Positions 4,880 through 52,397 of a DNA stretch of 64,000 nt are shown in pieces; position 1 is the stretch's first letter; every line of letters begins with the position of its first letter. This DNA comes from a virus: the IMG/VR virus record IMGVR_UViG_3300029328_000212; one strand, written 5' to 3'. Both the position numbers and the translations under genes were made by a program. The notes under the pieces are model-generated. The model was not told the DNA's origin. It worked only from the letters and a program-made list of their open reading frames with translations, and searched no databases.

Positions 4880-5215
4880 AAGGGCATAGTTATTAACTAT
4901 ACCCTTAATCTGTGTTTTCTTTATTCTTTTGTCAGTGTCAGTCCAATATTAAAGCTTCCCTGCCAGCACCCGGCTGATAATCCGTTAGTGGTGGTTATAT
5001 TATATACACAAACTTTATTTGTTGGTGTAATAATATTGTTACCGCTTTTCACTGTTATTGCAGCTGTTACATCAGCTTTACCTGCCTGCTTATATGGAAA
5101 GCTGTCTGGAACTGTTACTTTTATGCTGCCAGCCTTAAAGTCATCGCATTTAACACGGAATGAACTGTTACCTTTTGAATCCCCTGTCAGCACCTGTGGC
5201 ACTTATTTTTCTTCC
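4880..5215 (-). repeat. 3' cassette copy A (C-terminal domain module plus terminator hairpin)
   Basis: ~85% nucleotide identity to 15070-15412; shares the terminal hairpin GGGCATAGTTA..TAACTATACCC and ends GCWQGSFNIGLTLTKE. Confidence 0.8.
4921..5202 (-). pseudogene. orphan C-terminal domain module (93 aa) with no start of its own, in frame with upstream 750-aa gene across two stops
   Basis: Translation matches the last 93 aa of the 15111..16604 product; same reading frame as 5284..7536 but separated by TAG (5284-5286) and TAA (~5206). Confidence 0.5.
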
Positions 5216-15069: not shown

Positions 15070-15412
15070 AAAGGATATAGCCATTAGCTATACCCTTAAT
15101 CTGCGTTTCTTTATTCTTTTGTCAGCGTGAGTCCTATGTTAAAGCTTCCCTGCCAGCATCCGGCTGATAATCCGTTAGTGGTGGCTATATCGTATACACA
15201 AACCTTATTTGTTGGTGTAATGGTATTGTTACCACTTTTTGCTGTTATTGCAGCTGTTATGTCAGTCTTGCCAGCCTGCTTATATAGAAGGCTGTTTGGA
15301 ACTGTCACTTTGATGTTACCAGCTTTTAAGTCGTCACATTTAACACGAAATGAACTGTTACCTTTTGAATCCCCAATAAGAGTCTGGGGTATCTTAACAT
15401 GAATAGTATTAT
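15070..15412 (-). repeat. 3' cassette copy B (intact, forms the C-terminus of 15111..16604)
   Basis: Homologous to 4880-5215 and 24700-24900 including terminal hairpin GGATATAGCcattAGCTATACC. Confidence 0.8.
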
Positions 15413-20900: not shown

Positions 20901-23060
20901 CTACAGATATTTGCCAACGATAACATCAATATCACTTGGTTTTACATCGCAGTTATCATCAAGACCGAATCTTATGTCTGCTTCATCCGGATTGTCGGTA
21001 ATGACACCCCTTGCCTTAGCATTGAATGTAAACAGGTCATACAGATTAGGTTTTTTAACATCAACCATAGCCTTACAGGTAACGACTACTGATGGCAGAT
21101 TGCTCTCCACATTGATTCCGCCGTATCCAGCACGCACATGGTCAGCGGTAAGAGCCATGTCACACCATATGAGCACCCTCTCCCTAAGGTCAAAAATGAC
21201 CGGAATGCATGTGGTTGTTGCTGATGCAAGGTCCATTCGCTGTTTTACTGTAGACGGCTCAAAGATTTCCCCGCTCTTCATATCATTTCTCGTCATAAAG
21301 CCAAAAGCTGCATGCTCCATTTTCGAGAAATTCTCATCTGAAAAATTGTACACGTTAAATGCCGCATATCTCGCACCTGCAGATAAAGCTTTCTCAATAT
21401 CAAGGTCGATAAACTCAGCCACACCTTCTCCGTCAACAGGTCCGCCATTTGTAATGTCACCAGAGTGGCAGATTCCAAACCTACTTGACTTGAGATTTGT
21501 ATATGATACATGCTCAAGACAATCCCAGTTGTCAGCAAAAACTGCTACTGACAGGTCAACATCAATAATATTATCCTTGGTATTAGTCCACCAGATGAAT
21601 GGTCTGATAATCTTTGCACTGTCGTCTATTGCAATACGTGACCCTCTTGAAACAGCAGTCATTGTCTTGCCTGCACTTCTTAAGGAGAATGGAACTGTAT
21701 AATTCTTAAGAGCTTCATCAATATATACCTTTCCAAGGAACTCTCTGTTTCCATATATATTAACAAGAGTACTCTCACAGACAGCAATAACCATTTTCAT
21801 CACATCCTCAGGAATAGTTTTTGTTTTGTTATTCTTGACATAGTATGATCTCGCAAGATTTCCCTTTGGAAAGAAAACTCTCATGTCATCACTGCCATCA
21901 AGCTTATTGATAAAATGCTCCCTCACCTGCAAAAGCACTGTAGAAGATACATCTTTTGCAACAGAAGCAAAGCTCATGATAACAGCTTTTCTGTCAGCAT
22001 CCTTGTCAAATGTGCGAAGAAGAAAATCAATTCTCCTTGCAAACTCTCCCGGGCGCTTCTTAAGCAAGGAAACAACGGTGTTTACATCACCTGACGCAAC
22101 GGCTGCATCCACTCTGCCTGCAAACGACTTAATTTTACCATCATTTCTTATGACACCAAATGCCTGAACAGCTTTTGTATAGCGCTCATTCTTAGCAAAC
22201 TCACCCGGGTGCAGTTTTTCGCCTACACGGATCCATCTTCCGGCATATCTGCTCATATCCTCAGCTGCATTTCCACAGCCTGCAAGCAGGTTCATGATAA
22301 TTCTGCGCTCGCCTCTCTTTAAGTTTCTGAACTTAGTGTTTTCTGCAAGACTGACGTCACCATCAGACATTGCTGTAACAAGGCGCAGTACATCAGTTGC
22401 AGTTTTTATGTATTTTCTGCATAAATAGCCATCTGTGTCAACACCAGTATCAACAAGCAGTCTGCATACGCACGCAGCATTCTCCTTAAACGGAATTTCA
22501 TCTGGCAGAGTAACCTTTGCTGAATTTAAAATAAAGATCATGTCCTCAACATCACTCTTTGAAAGAGATGTCTTTGATGCACAGAGATTGTTAAAGATGT
22601 CATTTAAGTCATCAAACGAACCTGCCTCAAGCACCTTAACCTTTGCAACGTTAAAAAGAGGTACTCTCTCCTTTTTCTCCTCATAAGGCAGAAGGGTGCC
22701 AAAAGACCAGTAATGAACGATAGCATTGAAATACAGTTCAAAATCATCTTTCTCCATGACAGACTCAGGGAAATTAGGATACATTGGATTGTACACCCTG
22801 TCAGCACCGGTGATTTCCTTAAGTCCGTTTACAAGGGTATTATACATCACTTCACGGTTCTTAGCTTTCATGTGCACAAGCTTGTCAAAAAGAGCCTCTG
22901 ACATTGTATAGCCAAAGACTTCTATGTTCTTATTCATTGTTGCAACAATCTGCTTATTCTTTTCACCGACTGCAGCAGAAAGAGATTTAAGCATATCGTC
23001 ATCGTTAATGAACACTCTGTTTTTTCTTCTTAAAATGATGTTAAATACTGAATTTTCCAT
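20901..23060 (-). CDS. large hypothetical protein (about 720 aa)
   Basis: Long uninterrupted ORF; probable start MENSVFNIIL at 23060 with GGAGAAAAA RBS; no confidently recognisable catalytic motif. Confidence 0.7.
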   Translation of the reverse strand: MENSVFNIILRRKNRVFINDDDMLKSLSAAVGEKNKQIVATMNKNIEVFGYTMSEALFDKLVHMKAKNREVMYNTLVNGLKEITGADRVYNPMYPNFPESVMEKDDFELYFNAIVHYWSFGTLLPYEEKKERVPLFNVAKVKVLEAGSFDDLNDIFNNLCASKTSLSKSDVEDMIFILNSAKVTLPDEIPFKENAACVCRLLVDTGVDTDGYLCRKYIKTATDVLRLVTAMSDGDVSLAENTKFRNLKRGERRIIMNLLAGCGNAAEDMSRYAGRWIRVGEKLHPGEFAKNERYTKAVQAFGVIRNDGKIKSFAGRVDAAVASGDVNTVVSLLKKRPGEFARRIDFLLRTFDKDADRKAVIMSFASVAKDVSSTVLLQVREHFINKLDGSDDMRVFFPKGNLARSYYVKNNKTKTIPEDVMKMVIAVCESTLVNIYGNREFLGKVYIDEALKNYTVPFSLRSAGKTMTAVSRGSRIAIDDSAKIIRPFIWWTNTKDNIIDVDLSVAVFADNWDCLEHVSYTNLKSSRFGICHSGDITNGGPVDGEGVAEFIDLDIEKALSAGARYAAFNVYNFSDENFSKMEHAAFGFMTRNDMKSGEIFEPSTVKQRMDLASATTTCIPVIFDLRERVLIWCDMALTADHVRAGYGGINVESNLPSVVVTCKAMVDVKKPNLYDLFTFNAKARGVITDNPDEADIRFGLDDNCDVKPSDIDVIVGKYL

Positions 23061-23536
23061 AATGAATTTTTCTCCTTTGATAAAAACTGGGAATTGACAG
23101 CAGTACATCAACTATCTCGGCTGACCAAAATCAGCCAAACGAGATATACCATATTATAGAAGGAACTGCTGTCATATCCGGTTCCGCAGTAATCGTCGCA
23201 ACTGAAATCAACTTATAAGGTCCAAGAAGAAGGAAGCTGCAACATATCTGCTTTTGAATTATTATGTTCCGGAAGTTATCAACACTAGATGATCTGCTAT
23301 TTGTTTTATAATTAAGAAGGAAGTCTTAATATAGCCGGAACAAAGACTGTGGCAATCGCGTCAGGTAATTTATAAATGATCCATATGTATTCGTAGAAGG
23401 AACCTGACGCATAAGCAAACGTCTGCATTATTTGCCGTTATAATGAGCTTAATGCAGACAATGTTTTGCTTTTCCGCAATCGTAAAAAATATCCAGTACC
23501 GAAACAGTCGGTAGGCAGTTTTAGTACTGGATAAAA

Positions 23537-40340: not shown

Positions 40341-40508
40341 ATTTTCGGTTTTCGCATTATACAGTGGTTTTTCTTTTATAATTTATGTAAAATGTAATCA
40401 AAACTTATATAGAAGGCTATAATTGCAAAATAAAAAAAACATACTATTTGTAGTAAAATAATCATGTTATCTTGTATAAGCGCAATTTAAAGGAGGAATT
40501 ATCTAAAA

Positions 40509-41216
40509 ATGGCCAGTTTAAAGGATCGTTATGTGGATGACCACGTATATTGTGTTCTTAGCGAATATGAAAAAGTATTACTGGGAAACAAGAAAAAGTT
40601 TTCAGTTCCAAAAACAGAGGATAAAAAGGATAAAATAGATGATGTGGCTGCCTTGTGGTGGTCATACGCTATAAAAGACATATGTCACTGGGATTATGAT
40701 CAGGCTGTAGCATTTGTTGACTCAGAATTTGTAAAGCAGATGCGTCTGGAACCATCATTCCAGCATATTCCGCCAGATAAACGTCCTCATGTATCTAAAA
40801 ATATGAATTACGATTTTGCAGTTGCTCTTGTTTATCCAAAAGAGGCTAAATATTCTGCCGCAAAACGTGCAATTGATGAGTATGAACGTGTCAACCATCT
40901 TGGAAAATATGTTAACGACCCAAACGATTATTCGTATTCAAAAGGCTTCTGGAACAAGCCGGAGAATACAGCTCTCTGCCTCGGTTACTGTATTCAGAAT
41001 TTCTTAAGTTACAAAAGTCAGTATGAACTCTACAAGTTCTTTGCCAGTCCTGATGCCTTAAAATTTATTAAAGACCACAATCTTCTTGACGCATTCCGTA
41101 AGAGTATTTGCGAAACCCCTCTTGAATTGTTTCATAAATCTCTTGACTATTCGGCAAGGGATGAATTTCTTTATCATATGGTGAAACGTGAGTCGGAACT
41201 GTCCACTGACAAATAG
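40509..41216 (+). CDS. hypothetical protein (235 aa)
   Basis: Plus-strand ORF with AAGGAGGAAT RBS; promoter motif in plus orientation at 40413-40460 (CTTATATAGAAGGCTAT ... ACATACT). Confidence 0.6.
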   Translation: MASLKDRYVDDHVYCVLSEYEKVLLGNKKKFSVPKTEDKKDKIDDVAALWWSYAIKDICHWDYDQAVAFVDSEFVKQMRLEPSFQHIPPDKRPHVSKNMNYDFAVALVYPKEAKYSAAKRAIDEYERVNHLGKYVNDPNDYSYSKGFWNKPENTALCLGYCIQNFLSYKSQYELYKFFASPDALKFIKDHNLLDAFRKSICETPLELFHKSLDYSARDEFLYHMVKRESELSTDK

Positions 41217-41361
41217 TATCGTTTTGTACACGGAATGCCTGGAATGCGAAGATAGGAAGATGTGTTACGCTGGAATGCTGCATATGTTTGAGGAAGAGAA
41301 AAAGAAAGATAAAGAAAAACCGGGGCTGTAAAGCCTCGGTTTCTTTTGTGACATTTTTCTC

Positions 41362-42297
41362 TTATTTGAGGTTTAACTTAATAAGGATTGTAGAACCTGC
41401 ATCGTCATCAAATGCGTTTGCGATGTCCATCATCTCCTCATCGAGCTCCTCATCTGATCTGACAAATACCGGATGGAAGTATCCACATCTTCCGCCGTAA
41501 CCCTGTTTTCTGAGCATTGGTTCGAGCTTGTTAAAGGCTGAGCGCTGGATTTTTATAACATCCTTTTTGCTCAGAGATTCTCCTGTAACTTTGGACATTT
41601 CAATTACGAGCTCATCAATCGAGATGTCATTGAAGTATACCTGCATTACGACATATCTCTCTCTTACCGGAAGCCTGTCAATAAGCTCCCTTATGGCTTC
41701 TCTCTTAGCTTTTTCAGCTGCGACCACCTCTGGCTGTCCGTAATCTTCAGACTGCTCTGCTGTCTCTCCATTATACTCCTCATGTGTCGTGTTTGAACGT
41801 ACAAAAGCAGACAGTGCCGACTGGTACGACACATCGGCTATCTTTGCGAGTCGTCTGATATATTCCTTTTCGTAAGGAATACCATACTCAGCAGCCGCCT
41901 TTTTAAGCTGTCTCTCGATGTGTGCAAAATGCCCCGTTAACGACTCTGGGTTAAAAAGGCTCTGCACCGCATGCCTAATTATGTAGCCAAAGTATGTACT
42001 TGGCTTTCTAAACCCACCATTTGGTCCGATTGGCTCATATCCTCCGATGTTTGCGATTACTTCTGTCTGACACTCAGACATCAGCTCCTCAAACGAATAA
42101 CGGGAATTTTTAAATTTATTGCACTCCTCGACCATAAGACCATAGAGTGAGTTAACGAAGAAAAGCATAATCTCTTTCTTTTCTTCCTCGTCAGCCCCGT
42201 CGTTGTAGAAGTCGATCATCTCTTTCATTCTTTGAGGATCGTATTCATACTTCTCATTTTCTTTTGCTTTGATCACCTTTCCTGTTGTTCTGATCAT
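41362..42297 (-). CDS. sigma-70 family RNA polymerase sigma factor
   Basis: C-terminal region-4 HTH LPVRERYVVMQVYFNDISIDELVIEMSKVTGESLSKKDVIKIQRSAFNKL; region-2-like segment YFGYIIRHAVQSLF; preceded by AGTATGATTTTTTT motif at 42418. Confidence 0.75.
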   Translation of the reverse strand: MIRTTGKVIKAKENEKYEYDPQRMKEMIDFYNDGADEEEKKEIMLFFVNSLYGLMVEECNKFKNSRYSFEELMSECQTEVIANIGGYEPIGPNGGFRKPSTYFGYIIRHAVQSLFNPESLTGHFAHIERQLKKAAAEYGIPYEKEYIRRLAKIADVSYQSALSAFVRSNTTHEEYNGETAEQSEDYGQPEVVAAEKAKREAIRELIDRLPVRERYVVMQVYFNDISIDELVIEMSKVTGESLSKKDVIKIQRSAFNKLEPMLRKQGYGGRCGYFHPVFVRSDEELDEEMMDIANAFDDDAGSTILIKLNLK

Positions 42298-42655
42298 TTT
42301 TCTTAGCCTCCTTCAAAAGCGGATTTGAATTGACTTTCTCCTCTGCCTTCTGAAAGGCAATAGCTTCACTAAATGTCATGTTCTCCTCCATTCTCCTTTG
42401 TTTCTGTTACAAAACAAGTATGATTTTTTTATTATTAATCACCATCTTAGTTGTAACAATATTCAGTTACTATTTATCATTTTATACCTGTATTCAGTTA
42501 TATTCAAGATTTATTTTATATAAATTTTACTTTTTATGTATTTTATCCAAAAAATATGTTAATATATTTATGTAAATGGAAAAAATTGGCAATATTACTC
42601 CCCCACATCAAAATCCCCACAAAACACAGATTAGGATTAATAAAGAGGTAATTTT

Positions 42656-43003
42656 ATGGACAAACCAATTGCAGATATTACTGATTTAGGACAGCGTATG
42701 AAATATTTCAGAGAATTATCTGGAATGTCGCAGACAGATGTTTCGGCCAAAACCGGTATATCCAAAAACTATTTAAGTGCCGTCGAACGTGGTGTTAATA
42801 TTCCAAGTGCAAATATACTGATTACATATGCTAAAGGATGCCACATATCCCTTGATGATATAGCAGGTCTGCCACGCGATGACGGCATTCTCCCAGAGCT
42901 TCGCATGCGTCTGTCAACTCTCGACATAGAAACGCAGCGCATCATACTTCAGATGATTGATGCATTAGACAGCCACAAGACAAAAGAAACCCCACCGGAA
43001 TAA
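42656..43003 (+). CDS. XRE-family helix-turn-helix transcriptional regulator
   Basis: MSQTDVSAKTGISKNYLSAVERGVNIPSANILITYAKGCHISLDDIAG: classic Cro/C1-type HTH. Confidence 0.8.
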   Translation: MDKPIADITDLGQRMKYFRELSGMSQTDVSAKTGISKNYLSAVERGVNIPSANILITYAKGCHISLDDIAGLPRDDGILPELRMRLSTLDIETQRIILQMIDALDSHKTKETPPE

Positions 43004-43031
43004 GCCGGCGGGATTTTTTATCATAAGACTA

Positions 43032-43460
43032 TTATACAGTCTCTTTCAGGCAAATTAATAAATCTTTTGCCATCTCGTAGCCGTCATTGTTAGCTCTTCT
43101 TATAAGAGTCCACACATGTTTGGCTATAAATGGCTGATATATTTTAACAAAGCTTGTTACCTGGCCTTTTGACCAGTTTTTTATCTCATCAGGATCCATT
43201 GCCTGCACTGAGTCATGCAGGTACGCCCTGATAGCCGCCATATCTCTTTTCTCCGGAGGCAGTGCCATCTGGGTTGTGAAGTCGTCAAGCGACTTTATTT
43301 CAACTTTTCCTGTGTCAGGCTCAACACCTGCAGCCGGAAACATCTCGGCGCCGTTTATGGCTTCCATGAGATGAATCCTTTCCTCTGTTGTCATTTTTGT
43401 AAAGTTCTTGTAGATGACGACAAAATTATCGCCATCTATGTATTTAGCTGTTTCTAACAT
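43032..43460 (-). CDS. hypothetical protein (142 aa), last gene of MoxR-vWA operon
   Basis: Start overlaps/abuts vWA gene stop (43460 vs 43469); no motif. Confidence 0.55.
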   Translation of the reverse strand: MLETAKYIDGDNFVVIYKNFTKMTTEERIHLMEAINGAEMFPAAGVEPDTGKVEIKSLDDFTTQMALPPEKRDMAAIRAYLHDSVQAMDPDEIKNWSKGQVTSFVKIYQPFIAKHVWTLIRRANNDGYEMAKDLLICLKETV

Positions 43461-43468
43461 TGTTTCTC

Positions 43469-45301
43469 CTATCTGCCCGTTCTTTTCACGAGCTTTATAA
43501 GTTTTTTGCTCAGTTCCTTGGCAAGCCCATTTGTATCTTTCATATGAAGAAAATCCTGCCCATAGACATTTTTAAAATATTCAGTGCCTATATTTCCCAG
43601 TCCGACCGCAAATACGTCCGCTGTCTTTCTGGTCTTTTTTACCTCTTCTTTCATTTCCTGTGGACTTCCATAGCCATCTGACAATACGAACACAAATTTA
43701 TGTTCGCTGTTTACGCGGTTTATAATTTCTCTTGCAAATTTAATTGCAAGGGCATCATCTGTGCCGCCCGTTGCCCGCATTTTTATGAGGCTTGAAAGCT
43801 GTTCTTTTGAGTGCTTCCAAGGCACAAACTGTCTTGGCTCTCTCGTAAATCCCATAATGTAAACAGGGATTTTCATCTTTTCACACGCTTCTGCAATAAC
43901 AACAGCTGCACATACAGCGTTTTGTATGTTGTTAAAGTCGTTCATGCTGCCAGAATTATCAACGGCAAGCAGAACCGCCATGTCAGCCCTGTCTGCGGGT
44001 ACGCGTTTCTTGTTGAACACCTTTGCCGTTTTTCCAATACTGCCTCTCATCACGTCGTATCTTCCTGATGTGAAAGGCACATATTCGTCCGTGTCCTCCT
44101 CAAAAAGGCGTTTTAAAGAATTGGCCAGATAATTAATATCTGAACTCAATGCATTTTTTACTTTCGCGTACTGAGTAACAGACATTGGATCTGCACTTAC
44201 AGTATGATTTTTTATCTGCATTTTTTTGCAGACTTTTTCAGAATCTGAAAAGTCATCCTGCAATTTTCCTGATTCAGAGTCAGCTTTCTTCGCATTCTCC
44301 GACATTTTTTTCATGTCAGGCCTAATTTCCTCATCAGCCTTTTTGTCAGCCTCTTTTTTTGAAGCTTCAATACGTTTCAAAATGTCATCAGCCGCCTTTT
44401 CATCATCATTTTCAAGAACTTCTGCAAGTTCTTTTGCTGCGGCTTTCCGCCTGCCTTCTGCTTCACTGCCATTCGAATCCTGCCCTGACCGTTTTTTACC
44501 GGAACCATCTATATCGTTCTGTCCATCTTCGTTGTCATCCTCATCGGGATTAAGTCCACAGTCAGCATTGGCTAAGCTGTTTCCCGTTGCATTCTCTTTT
44601 GAAAGTCTTTTAAGCAGCTCTTTTAGCTTCTGCTCAAATTCTTTTACACTCTTGAACTCTTTTTCCCACAGAGGACGTGATGCTTCCATGCACTCTACTG
44701 CAATGTCAAGACGCTCCTTATTGTTAAATGTCCTGATACCCTTGTAATACAGCGGAGCGATTTTTTTAAAATACTCTTTTGCCTCGTTATAGGTAAAACT
44801 GCCCTTTACAAGGCCCATATCACCAAACTGTATCAACGCATTCATAAGCTGAGTAAATGGTGTTGTTTCACCCTCGTCTATTGACGGACTTTTCTTATAA
44901 ATCTCCCTGATTGTAAATCTGAGGGCATCCACAAGCCCTTCCCCAAGCCTTGAATCAGCAAAATACTCAATTGCCGGATCTTCAAGGGTATTTGAAAAGA
45001 GTCTGTAAACATGGCGCTCGACCCCGCTTTTAAGACTGTACATCAGTTTAATGTCATACTTGAAATTAGTAAAACACTGATGCAGCAGCTCATGTGCAAA
45101 CACTCCCTTGCGGAAGTATGCCGTTTCTGCATGGGTAAAACCTTTATAGTATTCGTGTTCCCACGCGATAAATACAGTTTTACTCATACCATCTGTATAT
45201 CCGAGCTTGTCTCCGCTATGGAGAAAGCTTACCTTAAGAGGCTTTTGCAGGACCATGAAAGCATCCCGTTCAAGCATCTTTTTCTCTTTTTCTTCACTCA
45301 T
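43469..45301 (-). CDS. vWA-domain protein with N-terminal HExxH zinc-metallopeptidase-like module
   Basis: N-terminal FAHELLHQCF (HExxH); C-terminal vWA MIDAS blocks AVLLAVDNSGSMND, ATGGTDD, VFVLSDG; acidic K/E-rich linker. Confidence 0.8.
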   Translation of the reverse strand: MSEEKEKKMLERDAFMVLQKPLKVSFLHSGDKLGYTDGMSKTVFIAWEHEYYKGFTHAETAYFRKGVFAHELLHQCFTNFKYDIKLMYSLKSGVERHVYRLFSNTLEDPAIEYFADSRLGEGLVDALRFTIREIYKKSPSIDEGETTPFTQLMNALIQFGDMGLVKGSFTYNEAKEYFKKIAPLYYKGIRTFNNKERLDIAVECMEASRPLWEKEFKSVKEFEQKLKELLKRLSKENATGNSLANADCGLNPDEDDNEDGQNDIDGSGKKRSGQDSNGSEAEGRRKAAAKELAEVLENDDEKAADDILKRIEASKKEADKKADEEIRPDMKKMSENAKKADSESGKLQDDFSDSEKVCKKMQIKNHTVSADPMSVTQYAKVKNALSSDINYLANSLKRLFEEDTDEYVPFTSGRYDVMRGSIGKTAKVFNKKRVPADRADMAVLLAVDNSGSMNDFNNIQNAVCAAVVIAEACEKMKIPVYIMGFTREPRQFVPWKHSKEQLSSLIKMRATGGTDDALAIKFAREIINRVNSEHKFVFVLSDGYGSPQEMKEEVKKTRKTADVFAVGLGNIGTEYFKNVYGQDFLHMKDTNGLAKELSKKLIKLVKRTGR

Positions 45302-45342
45302 TGTTCCTCCTTCGCCCCGTCTTATGGCGGGGCTTTTTCTTT

Positions 45343-47004
45343 CTAAATCTTAAGAGGCCTTACACTGTTTCTTATTGTTGTTGAGATTTCCCTTGCAAGT
45401 GCAAGGTCCTGTCTGGCTATAGAGCCAATCATTGTATCGTCAACAGCATCGAAACAGTCGTCACCCTCTTCCATGTTTTCAAGCGTACCCATGCAGGTAC
45501 GCAGTGACAGACCTGCGATGACATCATTTCTGTCGCACTCGCAGTCAGTATCCGGGTCTGACAACAGGGCAATAATGTTTGTGTAAACATCGTAAACCCA
45601 TGTGCAGGCCTTCTTGCTGAGTGACGTACCCGCTTCAAGGACTTCGATAAGAGAATCCCTTGTCGGGTCATTTAAGGTGTATGTCTGTCTGAAACGATTT
45701 GCAAAAGCTGCATTAAGCGGCTTTGAGCCCGCTGTTCCGACATTCATTGTGCCTATTACGACACACAGAGGATGTCTTCTTACATCCTTGTAACCGTTCT
45801 CCTTAATGATGAAAGGATATTCAATTGCTTGTCCGAGTCCGCCCATAAGGACAGAAGGATTTGCAAGATTTACCTCCTCAAGAACGATGATTCCGCCATT
45901 CTTGTATGCATCAAGGAAGTTTGTACTGCAGAACTGCGGCTTGCCATCTACAATTGTCGTAATACCAGAGAACTCTGTCTCATCTGTATTGTGGCTTATT
46001 GCAGTTGTATAAACCGGAAGCCCTGTTGCAGCTGAGAGTGCGTAAGCTAGTGTTGTTTTTCCGGTACCAGGTTTTCCAACCATAAGTGCATTTATGTAGT
46101 CGTTTCCAATTACATCCATGTACTGCACGCCCTCTGCCTGTCTTTCAAGCACTTTATCAAGTCTGTGCTTGATTTTCTTTGTCAGACTTTCAAATTGCTG
46201 GCTGCTGACAAAAGTATCAAGAAATGACGCAGGCTGGATATGCATTTTCTGCTCATCTGACCAGTCATAACTAATCTGAAATTTTCCAGCTTTTGCATTC
46301 TTTAAAAATTCCTTGCCATTGCTGCTCTTCTTAGTCTTTGTTTTTTCCTTCTGAAGAGAAGGCTCTGCCTGAAGCTTTACTGAATCAGGCACTAGATCAA
46401 ACATGCTGTGGGTTGTTAACAACCCAGTATTGTATGCTGTCTTTACCTCTTCTATGGTAAGGCTTCCGCTTTCCAGCTCAATCTGTGAATCCTTTATCAT
46501 GTAATAATAAATAATGTCACAGAAAAGATTTGAAAGTAGTTTTGTGTTTTCCGGAGAAGATGTGGCACCTCCAGTCATTGTTCTAACAAGGTTAGCAAAA
46601 GTGCCCCCAAGCTCGCTAGGTGAGACAAGATTTCTCACACTTTTTGCCATTGCGAGCGCAGCAACTGCCACCCACAAATCTTTTTTCACACAGTCAAAAG
46701 TGCTGCGTATGCCAATCGTTCTGTCAGACTTGAGACAAGCCTGTATAAAATTTCCGTGACTTTCAATCATCACTAGAGGCGAGTTTTCAGCCTCATAAAA
46801 TGAGATTTCATTCATTCTTCCAAACAGTCTTATTACAGCTGTTATTTTTGCTGCAGCCGTTGCAGACTGCGCGGGACGCTCCATTGCGAAGCACTGCGGG
46901 TTATTGGAGTACTCATTTACTCCAGTCTCAACCCTTGTTCCGCCTATGATATAACTGCCTTTTATTTTAAAAAGGTCAGTTGCTTTTAAAATTTCCTTTG
47001 CCAT
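45343..47004 (-). CDS. MoxR/CobS-like AAA+ ATPase (AAA_5 family)
   Basis: Walker A MVGKPGTGKTTLA, Walker B IIVLEEVNLA, sensor region; N- and C-terminal extensions of unknown function. Confidence 0.85.
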   Translation of the reverse strand: MAKEILKATDLFKIKGSYIIGGTRVETGVNEYSNNPQCFAMERPAQSATAAAKITAVIRLFGRMNEISFYEAENSPLVMIESHGNFIQACLKSDRTIGIRSTFDCVKKDLWVAVAALAMAKSVRNLVSPSELGGTFANLVRTMTGGATSSPENTKLLSNLFCDIIYYYMIKDSQIELESGSLTIEEVKTAYNTGLLTTHSMFDLVPDSVKLQAEPSLQKEKTKTKKSSNGKEFLKNAKAGKFQISYDWSDEQKMHIQPASFLDTFVSSQQFESLTKKIKHRLDKVLERQAEGVQYMDVIGNDYINALMVGKPGTGKTTLAYALSAATGLPVYTTAISHNTDETEFSGITTIVDGKPQFCSTNFLDAYKNGGIIVLEEVNLANPSVLMGGLGQAIEYPFIIKENGYKDVRRHPLCVVIGTMNVGTAGSKPLNAAFANRFRQTYTLNDPTRDSLIEVLEAGTSLSKKACTWVYDVYTNIIALLSDPDTDCECDRNDVIAGLSLRTCMGTLENMEEGDDCFDAVDDTMIGSIARQDLALAREISTTIRNSVRPLKI

Positions 47005-50703: not shown

Positions 50704-51858
50704 TTATGCCGCTTCACTAAGCAAGCGTTCAGTAAGCAGGCGTAATCCTTCATTCAAAATATTGATAGCTGCGTTTTGGTCACGATTCATTATAAGACCA
50801 CAATCACATATCATTTTGCGATTAGCTAAATCCTTCATTTCTGGATGCCGTGTACCACAACAATGACAAATTTGTGATGACGGAAACCACTTATCCACTT
50901 TTACGAAATACTTATTTCTATCAGATAGCTTATATTCAAGCATAGATAAAAGCATTCCATATCCGTTATCCATAGTAGCTTTACCATTACCAAATTTTTT
51001 ATTTGCTATTGCTTTCATATTAAGCGTCTCTACGCAGACAACATCATACTGATTGGCTATCTCAGTAGATATTTTATGTAAGTTGTCCAAACGTTGATTA
51101 GCAATATGTCTATGAATTTTGTTTACTTTATGAAGCTGTTTAATATAGTTATTAGACTTATCTTCATTCTTTTTAGAGCCTTGCATACGAGACAGTTTGC
51201 GTTGTTCTTTGGCAAGCTTATCATAACTTTCACGATAATACTTATGGTTCGTACCTACGTTGCCATTATTATCTACGTATAAGCCATTAGACGCATAATC
51301 TAATCCGATAGCGTTAGTTTTATCAGCTATATAGGTATTTTCTATTTCATCAAATTCAAAAAGAACAGAAGCATAATACTTACCATCTGACGCTAGTGAT
51401 ATAGTAGCAGACTTGACAGTCCAATTATCATTAGGAATACGATGAATAACGGCTTTCACTTTACCAATTTTAGGTAACTTGATATATTTATTATTTATAA
51501 TAGCCACTGTGCCGTTTTGATTATTCGTAGTATAAGACTTGCGGCTATGTTTTGCGGATTTGAATTTAGGAAATTCACTTTTCTTTTTACGTTTTTTATT
51601 GAATCTATTACGAAACGCTGCTTGTAAATCCATCTGTTTATTGGCAAGCGCAAGACTGTCTACTTCTTTAAGATAAGGATAATCTTCCTTATACTTAGCA
51701 GGCGTTACAGTAGGGAATTTCCCAGTCGCTTTATAACCCTCAATCTTATCTGCAAGCATAAGATTATAGACCTTGCGGCAACAACCAAAGGTCTTAGTAA
51801 ACATAACTCTCCGTTCAGTTGTAGGATATATGCGATATTTAATTGCTTTATTTGCCAT
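50704..51858 (-). CDS. tnpB: TnpB (IS605 OrfB) RuvC-like RNA-guided nuclease
   Basis: RuvC-I IGLDYASNG, RuvC-II/III with zinc finger CHCCGTRHPEMKDLANRKMICDCGLIMNRDQNAAINI. Confidence 0.9.
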   Translation of the reverse strand: MANKAIKYRIYPTTERRVMFTKTFGCCRKVYNLMLADKIEGYKATGKFPTVTPAKYKEDYPYLKEVDSLALANKQMDLQAAFRNRFNKKRKKKSEFPKFKSAKHSRKSYTTNNQNGTVAIINNKYIKLPKIGKVKAVIHRIPNDNWTVKSATISLASDGKYYASVLFEFDEIENTYIADKTNAIGLDYASNGLYVDNNGNVGTNHKYYRESYDKLAKEQRKLSRMQGSKKNEDKSNNYIKQLHKVNKIHRHIANQRLDNLHKISTEIANQYDVVCVETLNMKAIANKKFGNGKATMDNGYGMLLSMLEYKLSDRNKYFVKVDKWFPSSQICHCCGTRHPEMKDLANRKMICDCGLIMNRDQNAAINILNEGLRLLTERLLSEAA

Positions 51859-52255
51859 TTTTCTTTCCCTGTGATGCTATATACTGTTTAATAATATCTA
51901 CAGTAACTCCACTTGTAGTCAGTAGACAAAAACTCTGTGACCAGAACATTTCTTTCCATAAAGATTTACGTATTTGAGGAAATTCTTTCTTTATGAGTCT
52001 GCTACTTGCTGATTTATATGCATTGATGAATTTGCTGATTTCTGTATTTGGTTGTCCCCTAAACAAAATATGTACATGATCTATATCATGATTCCACTCT
52101 TCTAATACAATATTATAAGTAGGAGCAATCTTTTCAAATATCTCTTTTAAACGATTAGAAATAATATCATCTATTACCTTATTTCGATATTTTACGCACA
52201 TAATCAGATGATAATGCAACATGAACACTGAATGATTATTTGTATCTAATTTCAT
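51848..52255 (-). CDS. tnpA: IS200-type Y1 (HUH) transposase TnpA
   Basis: HYHLIMCVKYR, HUH motif HVHILF, catalytic Tyr region; 135 aa typical size. Confidence 0.9.
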   Translation of the reverse strand: MKLDTNNHSVFMLHYHLIMCVKYRNKVIDDIISNRLKEIFEKIAPTYNIVLEEWNHDIDHVHILFRGQPNTEISKFINAYKSASSRLIKKEFPQIRKSLWKEMFWSQSFCLLTTSGVTVDIIKQYIASQGKKNGK

Positions 52256-52397
52256 TACACTTATACCTTTTCTGCTAAATACGACTGATTTATAAATATA
52301 TTATAACATAATAAAATAGAAAAGTCAAAAACGCCGTGTAATCCGCAATTCATTCCACCACCTATAGAGGTGGGGGATTTCTTGCTTACGGCGTGTT

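Follow-up and report, generated by a model that had tools for sequence, protein, structure and literature searches.

T4 gp55 with gp33, which use −10-only TATAAATA promoters, and SPO1 gp34 with gp33 are phage late sigma factors that have small partners. SigO–RsoA of B. subtilis is a two-subunit sigma factor, in which the small co-transcribed co-factor RsoA (79 amino acids, aa) is needed, and Orf7 of the conjugative element Tn916 is sigma-like. The gene for SigN (ZpdN), on the B. subtilis plasmid pBS32, has a repressor-gated SigA promoter and a SigN-dependent autopromoter, and genes for DNA replication and for nucleotide metabolism are part of the SigN regulon on the plasmid (PMC6751061). In Tn916, the divergent helix-turn-helix (HTH) repressor Orf9 is opposed to the two-gene activator operon Orf7–Orf8, which stimulates its own promoter and then the transfer functions (PMC5812530). 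Here, we describe a module composed of a divergent sigma-70-family gene, an overlapping gene for a 41-aa protein and a divergent XRE/Cro-CI-type gene, located at positions 41,362–43,003 of a 64,000-nucleotide (nt) stretch of DNA (the window) from the virus record IMGVR_UViG_3300029328_000212. What is new is the obligately linked 41-aa gene beside an uncharacterised sigma clade, a −10-only promoter with an optional, rigidly spaced element far upstream, and, as it appears, the scale, with almost a whole megaplasmid behind one promoter type. The genes and translation signals of the module are as follows.

41362–42297, minus strand: sigma gene, divergent sigma-70 family, 311 aa.
42307–42313, minus strand: Shine–Dalgarno sequence AAGGAGG of the sigma gene, inside the K-E-A codons of the small gene and invariant in all orthologues.
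42254–42379, minus strand: mini open reading frame (mini-ORF), a conserved 41-aa gene (MTFSEAIAFQKAEEKVNSNPLLKEAKKNDQNNRKGDQSKRK) in the +1 frame, sharing 44 nt with the start of the sigma gene; two helices are predicted.
42383–42389, minus strand: Shine–Dalgarno sequence GGAGGAG of the mini-ORF.
42656–43003, plus strand: XRE/Cro-CI-type HTH gene, 115 aa, RstR-like, divergent from the sigma gene and without a CATACT promoter.

By analogy, the module most resembles, in operation, SigN of pBS32 and the Orf9/Orf7–Orf8 circuit of Tn916. As in pBS32, an alternative sigma factor is borne by the element, a promoter of the element type is conserved upstream of its own operon, and a regulon on the element can be inferred from the motif map. 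However, SigN resembles the extracytoplasmic function (ECF) factors and is gated by the host LexA, whereas the protein described here, of approximately 310 aa, contains a sigma3-like segment and ends in a C-terminal extension, and its putative gate is an element-encoded XRE protein; moreover, a conserved small ORF is fused to the operon and the promoters lack a −35 element. The likeness to Tn916 lies in a divergent HTH protein, a putative repressor here, facing a two-gene activator operon in a Firmicute conjugative element. The two differ in gene order, the small gene lying downstream of the sigma-like gene in Tn916 but upstream of the sigma gene, and overlapping it, in the present module. They also differ in control, which in Tn916 proceeds by read-through of one long transcript, whereas here the same −10 element recurs at dozens of individual promoters. 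With T4 and SPO1, the points of likeness would be a mobile-element sigma factor, a −10-type element without a −35 element, or dependence on a small second protein; but the sigma factor here keeps its region-4 HTH and the carrier is plasmid-like instead of a lytic phage. Compared with SigO–RsoA, the gene order is reversed and the small protein has 41 aa, and a promoter-recognition role for it is unsupported.

The first-pass annotation described the 311-aa product as a sigma factor with a clear region 4 and a divergent region 2, and both parts of the description hold. The generic sigma-70 model of NCBIfam, TIGR02937, aligns with residues 47–230 (E=7e-10; 38.8 bits, cut-off 42.9), and the PHROG sigma family phrog_351 also matches (E=1.5e-8). 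In Pfam, Sigma70_r4_2 gives a sub-threshold match to residues 199–230 (E=0.0044; 17.1 against 25.7), and neither region 2 nor Sigma70_r3 was found in the protein itself; many NCBIfam sigma models align at residues 160–260. A profile of five orthologues aligns residues 49–122 with region 2 of solved SigA structures. Furthermore, a profile from 40 distant relatives (A3) aligns with regions 2–4 of solved SigA/RpoD structures (E=4e-27), running unbroken through SigA region 3; among these sampled relatives, Pfam Sigma70_r2 is found in 27/40, a region-4 model in 18/40 and Sigma70_r3 in 7/40. The AlphaFold2 (AF2) model has a low overall confidence score (pLDDT 57), with the region-4 part at 73–81, and places approximately 70 residues, including two to three helices (124–168), between regions 2 and 4. 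In a Foldseek search with this low-confidence model, sigma factors make up 100% of the matches. The layout along the protein is as follows.

Sigma layout (residues): sigma2, approximately 47–122; sigma3-like helices, approximately 124–168; acidic linker, 168–192; sigma4 HTH, approximately 195–262; conserved C-terminal extension, 263–311.

Judging from these profile matches, the 311-aa ORF is a genuine but very divergent sigma-70-family protein. The scores under the curated family thresholds, together with a divergent region 2.2 (ELMSEC where DLxQxG is expected) and the replacement of sigma70 W433 and W434 by Tyr and Ile, would also suit a degenerate sigma-like DNA-binding regulator or decoy, which binds core RNA polymerase (RNAP) or DNA without directing initiation. 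Such a role is highly improbable in our view, given that the whole sigma2–3–4 layout is kept across a family of more than 170 proteins, that close orthologues are strongly conserved, and that a dedicated promoter class is present with no other reader encoded.

The classification that had been proposed as a check, group 3 or 4 versus the TcdR-like group, can be given in part. ECF (group 4) factors were taken to consist of sigma2 and sigma4 only, with approximately 170–220 aa and usually an anti-sigma gene downstream. The present protein has 311 aa, a long middle segment and a C-terminal extension, and its downstream gene is convergent and not co-transcribed; none of the NCBIfam sigma subfamily models comes near its cut-off, and the ECF subfamily models all score far below. 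The layout seems group-3-like (sigma2, a sigma3-like segment and sigma4) and is not ECF. No family of the TcdR/BotR/TetR/UviA group is among the NCBIfam and Pfam matches, where the existence of a dedicated model is unconfirmed. By sequence, the protein belongs to an uncharacterised clade with no demonstrated membership in a curated sigma subfamily and with a conserved C-terminal extension (263–311) of approximately 50, largely acidic, residues, which is the part of the protein best conserved between clades.

Six close homologues were found among 5.8 billion proteins, all in Logan assemblies. An exhaustive profile search gave 176 relatives of approximately 300 aa, just 8 of them with E<1e-10, and a wider alignment (A4) added two new distant homologues that are too divergent for a locus scan. 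There is no sigma relative in IMG/VR, also when queried with P0007, P0008 and P0009, and no match in PLSDB; the JGI metagenomes hold one near-identical contig of 2.3 kb, and the sole INPHARED match is MT835474, also with the distant relatives P0007 and P0008 as queries. A 417-aa ORF (P0004; L004 1707–2960) combines sigma residues 81–311 (99% identical) with an unrelated 186-aa N-terminus and adjoins genes from elsewhere in the replicon. It is confined to one contig, was dismissed as a true fusion and probably reflects a chimeric assembly or a rearrangement.

The sigma operon is located behind a promoter of a type that recurs throughout the window.

42417–42431, minus strand: promoter of the mini-ORF/sigma operon, A-tract and TCATACT (−10-like; CATACT at 42417–42422), 43 nt before the mini-ORF start, followed by N5-TGTAAC.

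This promoter is invariant in L001, L003 (a 64% relative), L056 and L061, and its CATACT is retained in L002 and L060 of the 51%-identity clade. In the window, 34/70 CATACT copies are situated in non-coding DNA, which makes up 14.5% of its length, and nearly all of these are oriented toward the downstream gene. CATACT occurs in 24 of approximately 31 upstream gaps, 26–101 nt (median approximately 46) before the start codon, and the longer form AAWNTCATACT has 15 matches where 0.69 are expected. Promoter logos were made from 63 sites pooled from the window, the GenBank record MT835474 and IMG/VR pieces, and comprise two classes. Class A (32 sites), to which the sigma-operon promoter belongs, has an A-tract at −22 to −14, T at −13 and CATACT. 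Class B (31 sites) has a 15-mer at −48 to −34 and AAATCTAT at −20 to −13. Both classes share the conserved T at −13 and have TGTAA where the transcription start is expected, and more than 60 sites all have C at both −12 and −8. A −35 signal was sought in the logos and is absent, class A being without any. The pervasive part of the promoter is the −10-like TCATACT (−13 to −7) with its A-tract and no −35 element, with or without the 15-mer.

Some genes in the same DNA are without CATACT and carry canonical promoters instead. The integrase (968–2251) has TTGACC-18-TATAAT and TTGAGA-17-TGnTATAAT, and the transposase pair of an IS200/605-type insertion sequence (IS; 50704–52255) has TTGACT-17-TGnTATAAT.

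2433–2462, 2821–2849 and 52300–52328, minus strand: near-consensus host-type promoters (11/12 matches, two with an extended TG), upstream of the integrase and the IS transposase.

Host-type promoters therefore coexist with the CATACT class and are distinct from it. The genes without CATACT, among which is the XRE gene, are those expected to be active in the silent state, or foreign. Across 185,579 reference genomes, the strict full motif has one match, in Agathobacter sp. LCP21S3_B2 (Lachnospiraceae; L052, NZ_JBQKGQ010000006.1). The notion that the motif is a host promoter was rejected on this count, which concerns the strict motif and not degenerate host versions.

The 15-mer CTTATATRGAARGCC has 14 matches in the window against 1.4 expected, and 12 sites have the bipartite form CTTATATRGAARGCC-N21-CATACT, i.e. 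a subset of the promoters (replication genes and others). Matches at 5089–5103 and 15279–15293 (both plus strand) are antisense to the coding sequence of paralogous surface proteins that contains them, form part of a longer repeat common to both places and have no CATACT at N21; these copies are repeat-borne and not promoters. The spacing is exactly N21 in 36/36 full sites, of which the nearest to the module is the following.

40399–40453, plus strand: full bipartite promoter (CTTATATAGAAGGCT-N21-CATACT), serving the conserved 235-aa gene convergent on the sigma gene.

In addition, at approximately 10 promoters in the wider replicon, CATACT runs directly into TTCCATATAA(AAAGAAGAAAGGAG), which is the upstream element in inverted orientation.

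L034:600, L013:2748, L014:6462, L023:6252, L047:6344, and MT835474 (L053) 30928 and 48859, all minus strand: inverted-copy promoters.

The upstream 15-mer and the inverted copy together form TTATATGGAAAG-N29-CTTTCCATATAA, 12-bp inverted repeats bracketing the core promoter, which could represent an operator pair or a conserved 5′ leader. The 15-mer is centred at approximately −41, the position of a class II activator, and about half of the promoters do without it. Together with the inverted copies, and with region-4.2 contact positions that vary between clades sharing the 15-mer, these features fit a site for a separate element-encoded factor, an activator at −41 or a repressor when inverted at +1, with the sigma factor providing −10 recognition only; we give this reading slightly less than an even chance. 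The rigid spacing, in contrast, fits the holoenzyme or a sigma-linked partner, as does a similar element in L067, where TTGTATAGAAA stands 20–21 nt upstream of a CATACT beside a sigma gene of 24–33% identity, and no candidate for the separate factor was identified.

In approximately 195 kb, comprising the window, MT835474 and 75 kb of an overlapping 92-kb IMG/VR contig, there is one sigma-70-family ORF, present in the window and MT835474, and none in the 75 kb of the contig. Simultaneously, the DxDGD motif of an element-encoded RNAP is found in no ORF of at least 300 aa. As the only sigma gene on an element with no RNAP of its own, it is therefore the natural candidate reader of the element promoters. 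This much agrees with the first-pass annotation, which had named the sigma factor as the obvious candidate for a pervasive 15-mer/TCATACT motif; of that motif, TCATACT is pervasive and the 15-mer is not. The 92-kb contig was considered as an unrelated element with the same motif and no sigma gene, and this was rejected, since MT835474 holds the sigma gene and also 10 kb that is 96–98% identical to the contig.

The promoter type travels with the sigma gene. CATACT with the 15-mer at N21 is kept in the 51%-identity clade (L002, L060). In L067 and L068, relatives at 24–33% identity in DNA of 31% G+C content (GC) with different neighbours, the operons start with CATATT or CATAAT and then N5-TGTAAC, like CATACT-N5-TGTAAC of the window. 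Within the sigma protein, H109 and Q112 are invariant in the orthologues and align with Q437 and T440 in region 2.4 of sigma70, where the classic Q437H and also T440I suppress a T-to-C promoter change at −12 (PMC2613000). The His at the Q437 position would fit the C with which CATACT starts.

The best model, which in our estimate has about an even chance of being correct, is that a dedicated element sigma factor reads CATACT, with positive autoregulation. The sigma factor with host core RNAP would read the A-rich tract and the invariant TCATACT, with no −35 hexamer involved. Such a promoter precedes nearly every transcription unit, the sigma operon included, and induction would therefore be self-reinforcing. 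The divergent XRE repressor would bind two putative operators in the spacer and gate start-up, the 41-aa protein, encoded on the same mRNA, would act as a partner of the sigma factor, and the 15-mer would serve as an accessory upstream element, read either by sigma region 4 with the C-terminal extension or by a separate activator docking on the sigma factor. We infer these contacts, the autoregulation and the repression from the gene arrangement and the promoter map. The most extensive form of the model is an orthogonal system, in which a two-part sigma factor (311 aa plus the linked 41 aa) sends host core RNAP to −35-less promoters, the C-terminal extension or a docking partner reads the 15-mer boost, and one repressor-gated, self-amplifying switch controls almost all of a megaplasmid of 200 kb or more, with its genes for replication, surface proteins and transfer; this we judge unlikely.

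Several points weigh against reading by the element sigma factor. The DNA examined takes in all but approximately 17 kb of the 92-kb contig and does not reach the remainder of the replicon, the sigma protein scores below the curated thresholds, and its AF2 model is weak overall. The region-4.2 contact residues differ between two clades that share nearly the same 15-mer, the centre of which is too far upstream for a usual −35 element. At the Q437 position, His gives way to Ser or Gly in the distant relatives P0012 and P0156, the operon promoters of which nevertheless keep C at −12; the link between His and C is therefore suggestive and no firmer. In L002, the sole locus of the 51% clade that spans the spacer, the XRE gene is absent. 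The sigma operon itself stands behind CATACT, with a weak match (9/12) as the sole sigmaA-like alternative, so a start-up route is required. Finally, CATACT keeps the key A−11 and T−7 of TATAAT, and host sigmaA, aided by the A-tract, could therefore read it.

That sigmaA or another host sigma factor reads the A-tract and TCATACT, with the element sigma controlling a subset only (15-mer promoters or a few other targets), is rather doubtful, although more than the two shared key positions speaks for it. CATACT agrees with TATAAT at 4/6 positions, the A-tract could serve as an UP-like or extended element, the −10 elements of the sporulation sigma factors E, K and G also start with CATA, the relatives without His still have C at −12, and a sigma promoter of this type is simplest if the host can fire it. 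However, the C at −12 and the C at −8 do not vary, the −35 element is absent, near-perfect TTGACA/TATAAT promoters serve the integrase and IS genes of this DNA, and the full motif is essentially missing from the reference genomes. A dedicated element sigma factor thus stays our preferred reader.

The short ORF that had been reported to overlap the sigma start is real. It was listed as 42254–42391 (minus strand), and its conserved start is the ATG at 42379 (MTFSEA...), since in L056 and L003 the ATG farther upstream is either stopped or in another frame. The gene stands next to the sigma gene in all of the recovered contigs, which come from several human cohorts. Among eight variants of the peptide, 18 positions are invariant, and the peptide is better conserved than the sigma protein. 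Codons 1–27 have a ratio of nonsynonymous to synonymous substitution rates (dN/dS) of 0.05–0.14 against L002 and L003, with dS at approximately 1.2–1.4 and near saturation. The AF2 model consists of two helices, the first with pLDDT 92; no match was found in Pfam or PHROG. In the distant relatives at 24–33% identity, an ORF of 61–63 aa overlaps the sigma start (L067 1179–1370 by 14 nt; L068 42–227 by 4 nt), and homology of these ORFs to the 41-aa protein was rejected (hhalign probability 0.2%).

The first-pass annotation had proposed the mini-ORF as a leader translationally coupled to the sigma gene. In the strict form of this proposal, the mini-ORF is a regulatory upstream ORF alone, the translation of which opens or occludes the ribosome-binding site of the sigma gene, and the peptide has no function. 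The overlap of 44–56 nt stands, with the sigma Shine–Dalgarno sequence inside the mini-ORF and AGGAGG 8–9 nt 5′ of the sigma ATG. RNAalifold pairs GCCUUU (mini-ORF codons 8–9) with this Shine–Dalgarno sequence in 4/4 sequences. Furthermore, the A-run at 42298–42306, which is the spacer between the sigma Shine–Dalgarno sequence and ATG and also the KK codons of the mini-ORF, differs by one Lys codon among variants (P0161, P0164), and this length variation may tune the coupling. The sequestering hairpin was dropped, however, for want of covariation (no compensatory changes) and for a folding energy at the level of shuffled sequence (z=−0.19), and an Rfam search for a known RNA leader gave no match. 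A leader peptide would be largely free to vary or would conserve just a short arrest motif, whereas codons 1–27 are under strong purifying selection and the N-terminal helix is confidently predicted. The leader role alone is therefore improbable, and the mini-ORF most likely encodes a functional small protein co-expressed with the sigma factor, with co-factor, chaperone and small anti-sigma factor as candidate roles for what is most likely a functional partner.

On the other side of the spacer, the Cro/C1-like HTH gene had been placed approximately 360 bp away across AT-rich DNA, which is borne out: the starts of the XRE and sigma genes are 358 nt apart, and the 276-nt spacer that separates the XRE gene from the mini-ORF has 23.9% GC against 39.3% for the window. 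The XRE protein matches HTH_3 (PF01381; E=2e-13, 50.5 bits against a cut-off of 23) and an RstR-like model (E=3.5e-11, below the cut-off of that model). The spacer contains the following elements.

42431–42459, minus strand: weak sigmaA-type match TTGTTA-17-AATAAT (9/12), just upstream of CATACT.
42454–42469, minus strand: operator-like repeat O2, TAACTGAATATTGTTA, overlapping the TTGTTA hexamer.
42485–42500, minus strand: operator-like repeat O1, TAACTGAATACAGGTA, 31 bp from O2.

O1 and O2 are 16-bp repeats with a TAAC...GTTA-type symmetry and are present nowhere but in this spacer; in L003, a perfect palindrome with the same half-site, CTAACTGTATACAGTTAG, occupies the position equivalent to O2. 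On the sigma strand, O2 overlaps the weak sigmaA-like −35 hexamer; on the XRE strand, it overlaps a TTGTAA-18-TATCAT match. From this arrangement, the XRE protein probably binds the two putative operators, of the type TAACTG-N4-CAGKTA, as a local repressor, and TTGTTA-17-AATAAT may, speculatively, be a host-read start-up promoter. The 51%-clade loci L002 and L060 have a different palindrome. The comparison with lysis–lysogeny-type switches of phages or integrative and conjugative elements thus holds for the divergent XRE gene and for the operator-like repeats confined to the spacer, but not for a phage carrier; and because the XRE gene is missing from the L002 spacer, the layout is not a fixed part of the module.

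As a separate observation, L067 has a TTGTTC-17-TATACT match upstream of its CATATT promoter, a layout with a distal host-type and a proximal specific promoter.

The window is 98–99% identical to MT835474, an unannotated 83-kb GenBank record titled "Bacteriophage sp.", which runs 56 kb past the window; its far end is 96–98% identical to the 92-kb IMG/VR contig (IMGVR_UViG_3300045988_182914). MT835474 bridges the two, and the replicon is therefore at least 120 kb and probably approximately 200 kb. The genes, a conjugation and replication set, encode an ATPase of the VirB4/TraG type, an NlpC/P60 protein of 1401 aa, a T2SSE ATPase, topoisomerase III, three RecD2-type helicases, DNA polymerase III alpha, an exonuclease, single-stranded DNA-binding proteins and HU. 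An integrase is also encoded, as are giant surface proteins, in which subtilase, Listeria-Bacteroides and BspA repeats are present; no capsid, portal or tail family was found in the gene content. By this gene content, the carrier is a conjugative megaplasmid-like element of at least 120–200 kb from human-gut Clostridia and not a phage, and it is likely an approximately 200-kb megaplasmid misfiled as a phage.

The 'Hodor' conjugative megaplasmids of the human gut have 44–47% GC and are defined by Rep_3, ParA/ParB and sortases; the paper that describes them mentions neither a sigma factor nor a promoter motif (PMC12934698). Like the Hodors, the present carrier is very large, gut-derived and filed in viral collections, with type IV secretion genes, helicases, large surface-protein genes and Bacillota hosts. 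Unlike them, the window has 39% GC, and the Rep_3, ParA/ParB and sortase markers were not seen. In the cultured Agathobacter (L052 2791–8000), a contig that is chromosomal or large includes a block, 3.3 kb or more in length, with genes of 485, 184 and 413 aa, the products of which are approximately 96–97% identical to part of the megaplasmid family. One full promoter motif is inside the block, which is either a host clue or a mobile sub-module.

Around the module, the following features complete the region.

40509–41216, plus strand: 235-aa gene convergent on the sigma gene, 58% identical across clades, above the sigma protein; it has a full 15-mer promoter.
41317–41342, unstranded: hairpin terminator common to the sigma gene and the convergent 235-aa gene.
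42987–43016, unstranded: hairpin terminator common to the XRE gene and the convergent operon of AAA, VWA and 142-aa genes.

The 235-aa protein has invariant Cys and His residues, with no family match and no match of its profile to the PDB, and is a candidate partner or regulator. The products of the operon at 43032–47004 (minus strand), which ends at the XRE terminator, are an ATPase of the MoxR type (AAA_5, 553 aa), a 610-aa VWA protein and a conserved protein of 142 aa. In each locus with a recovered upstream flank (L001, L002, L056 and L061, from both clades), the neighbours of the sigma module include at least the VWA gene and the 142/145-aa gene. Farther away, the product of a 736-aa ORF at 20901–23111 (minus strand) has matches to NF041916, the RING-domain family MXAN_6230/SCO0854 (E=2e-128, under the curated threshold), and to phrog_33734 (E=5e-91).

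The map of TCATACT, with or without the 15-mer, is a practical signature for fragments of such elements in metagenomes, where they are now filed as phages. If the model is true, the sigma proteins define an uncharacterised family, missing from those annotated collections of phages and plasmids that were searched, and the compact, highly specific promoter would be reusable as an orthogonal expression part in Clostridia. For the biology of the element, if true, a module of a repressor, a 41-aa protein and a sigma factor decides between silence and full expression of a very large, widespread conjugative element of the gut, and the control of the whole element by one module would therefore explain how such elements limit the cost to their hosts.

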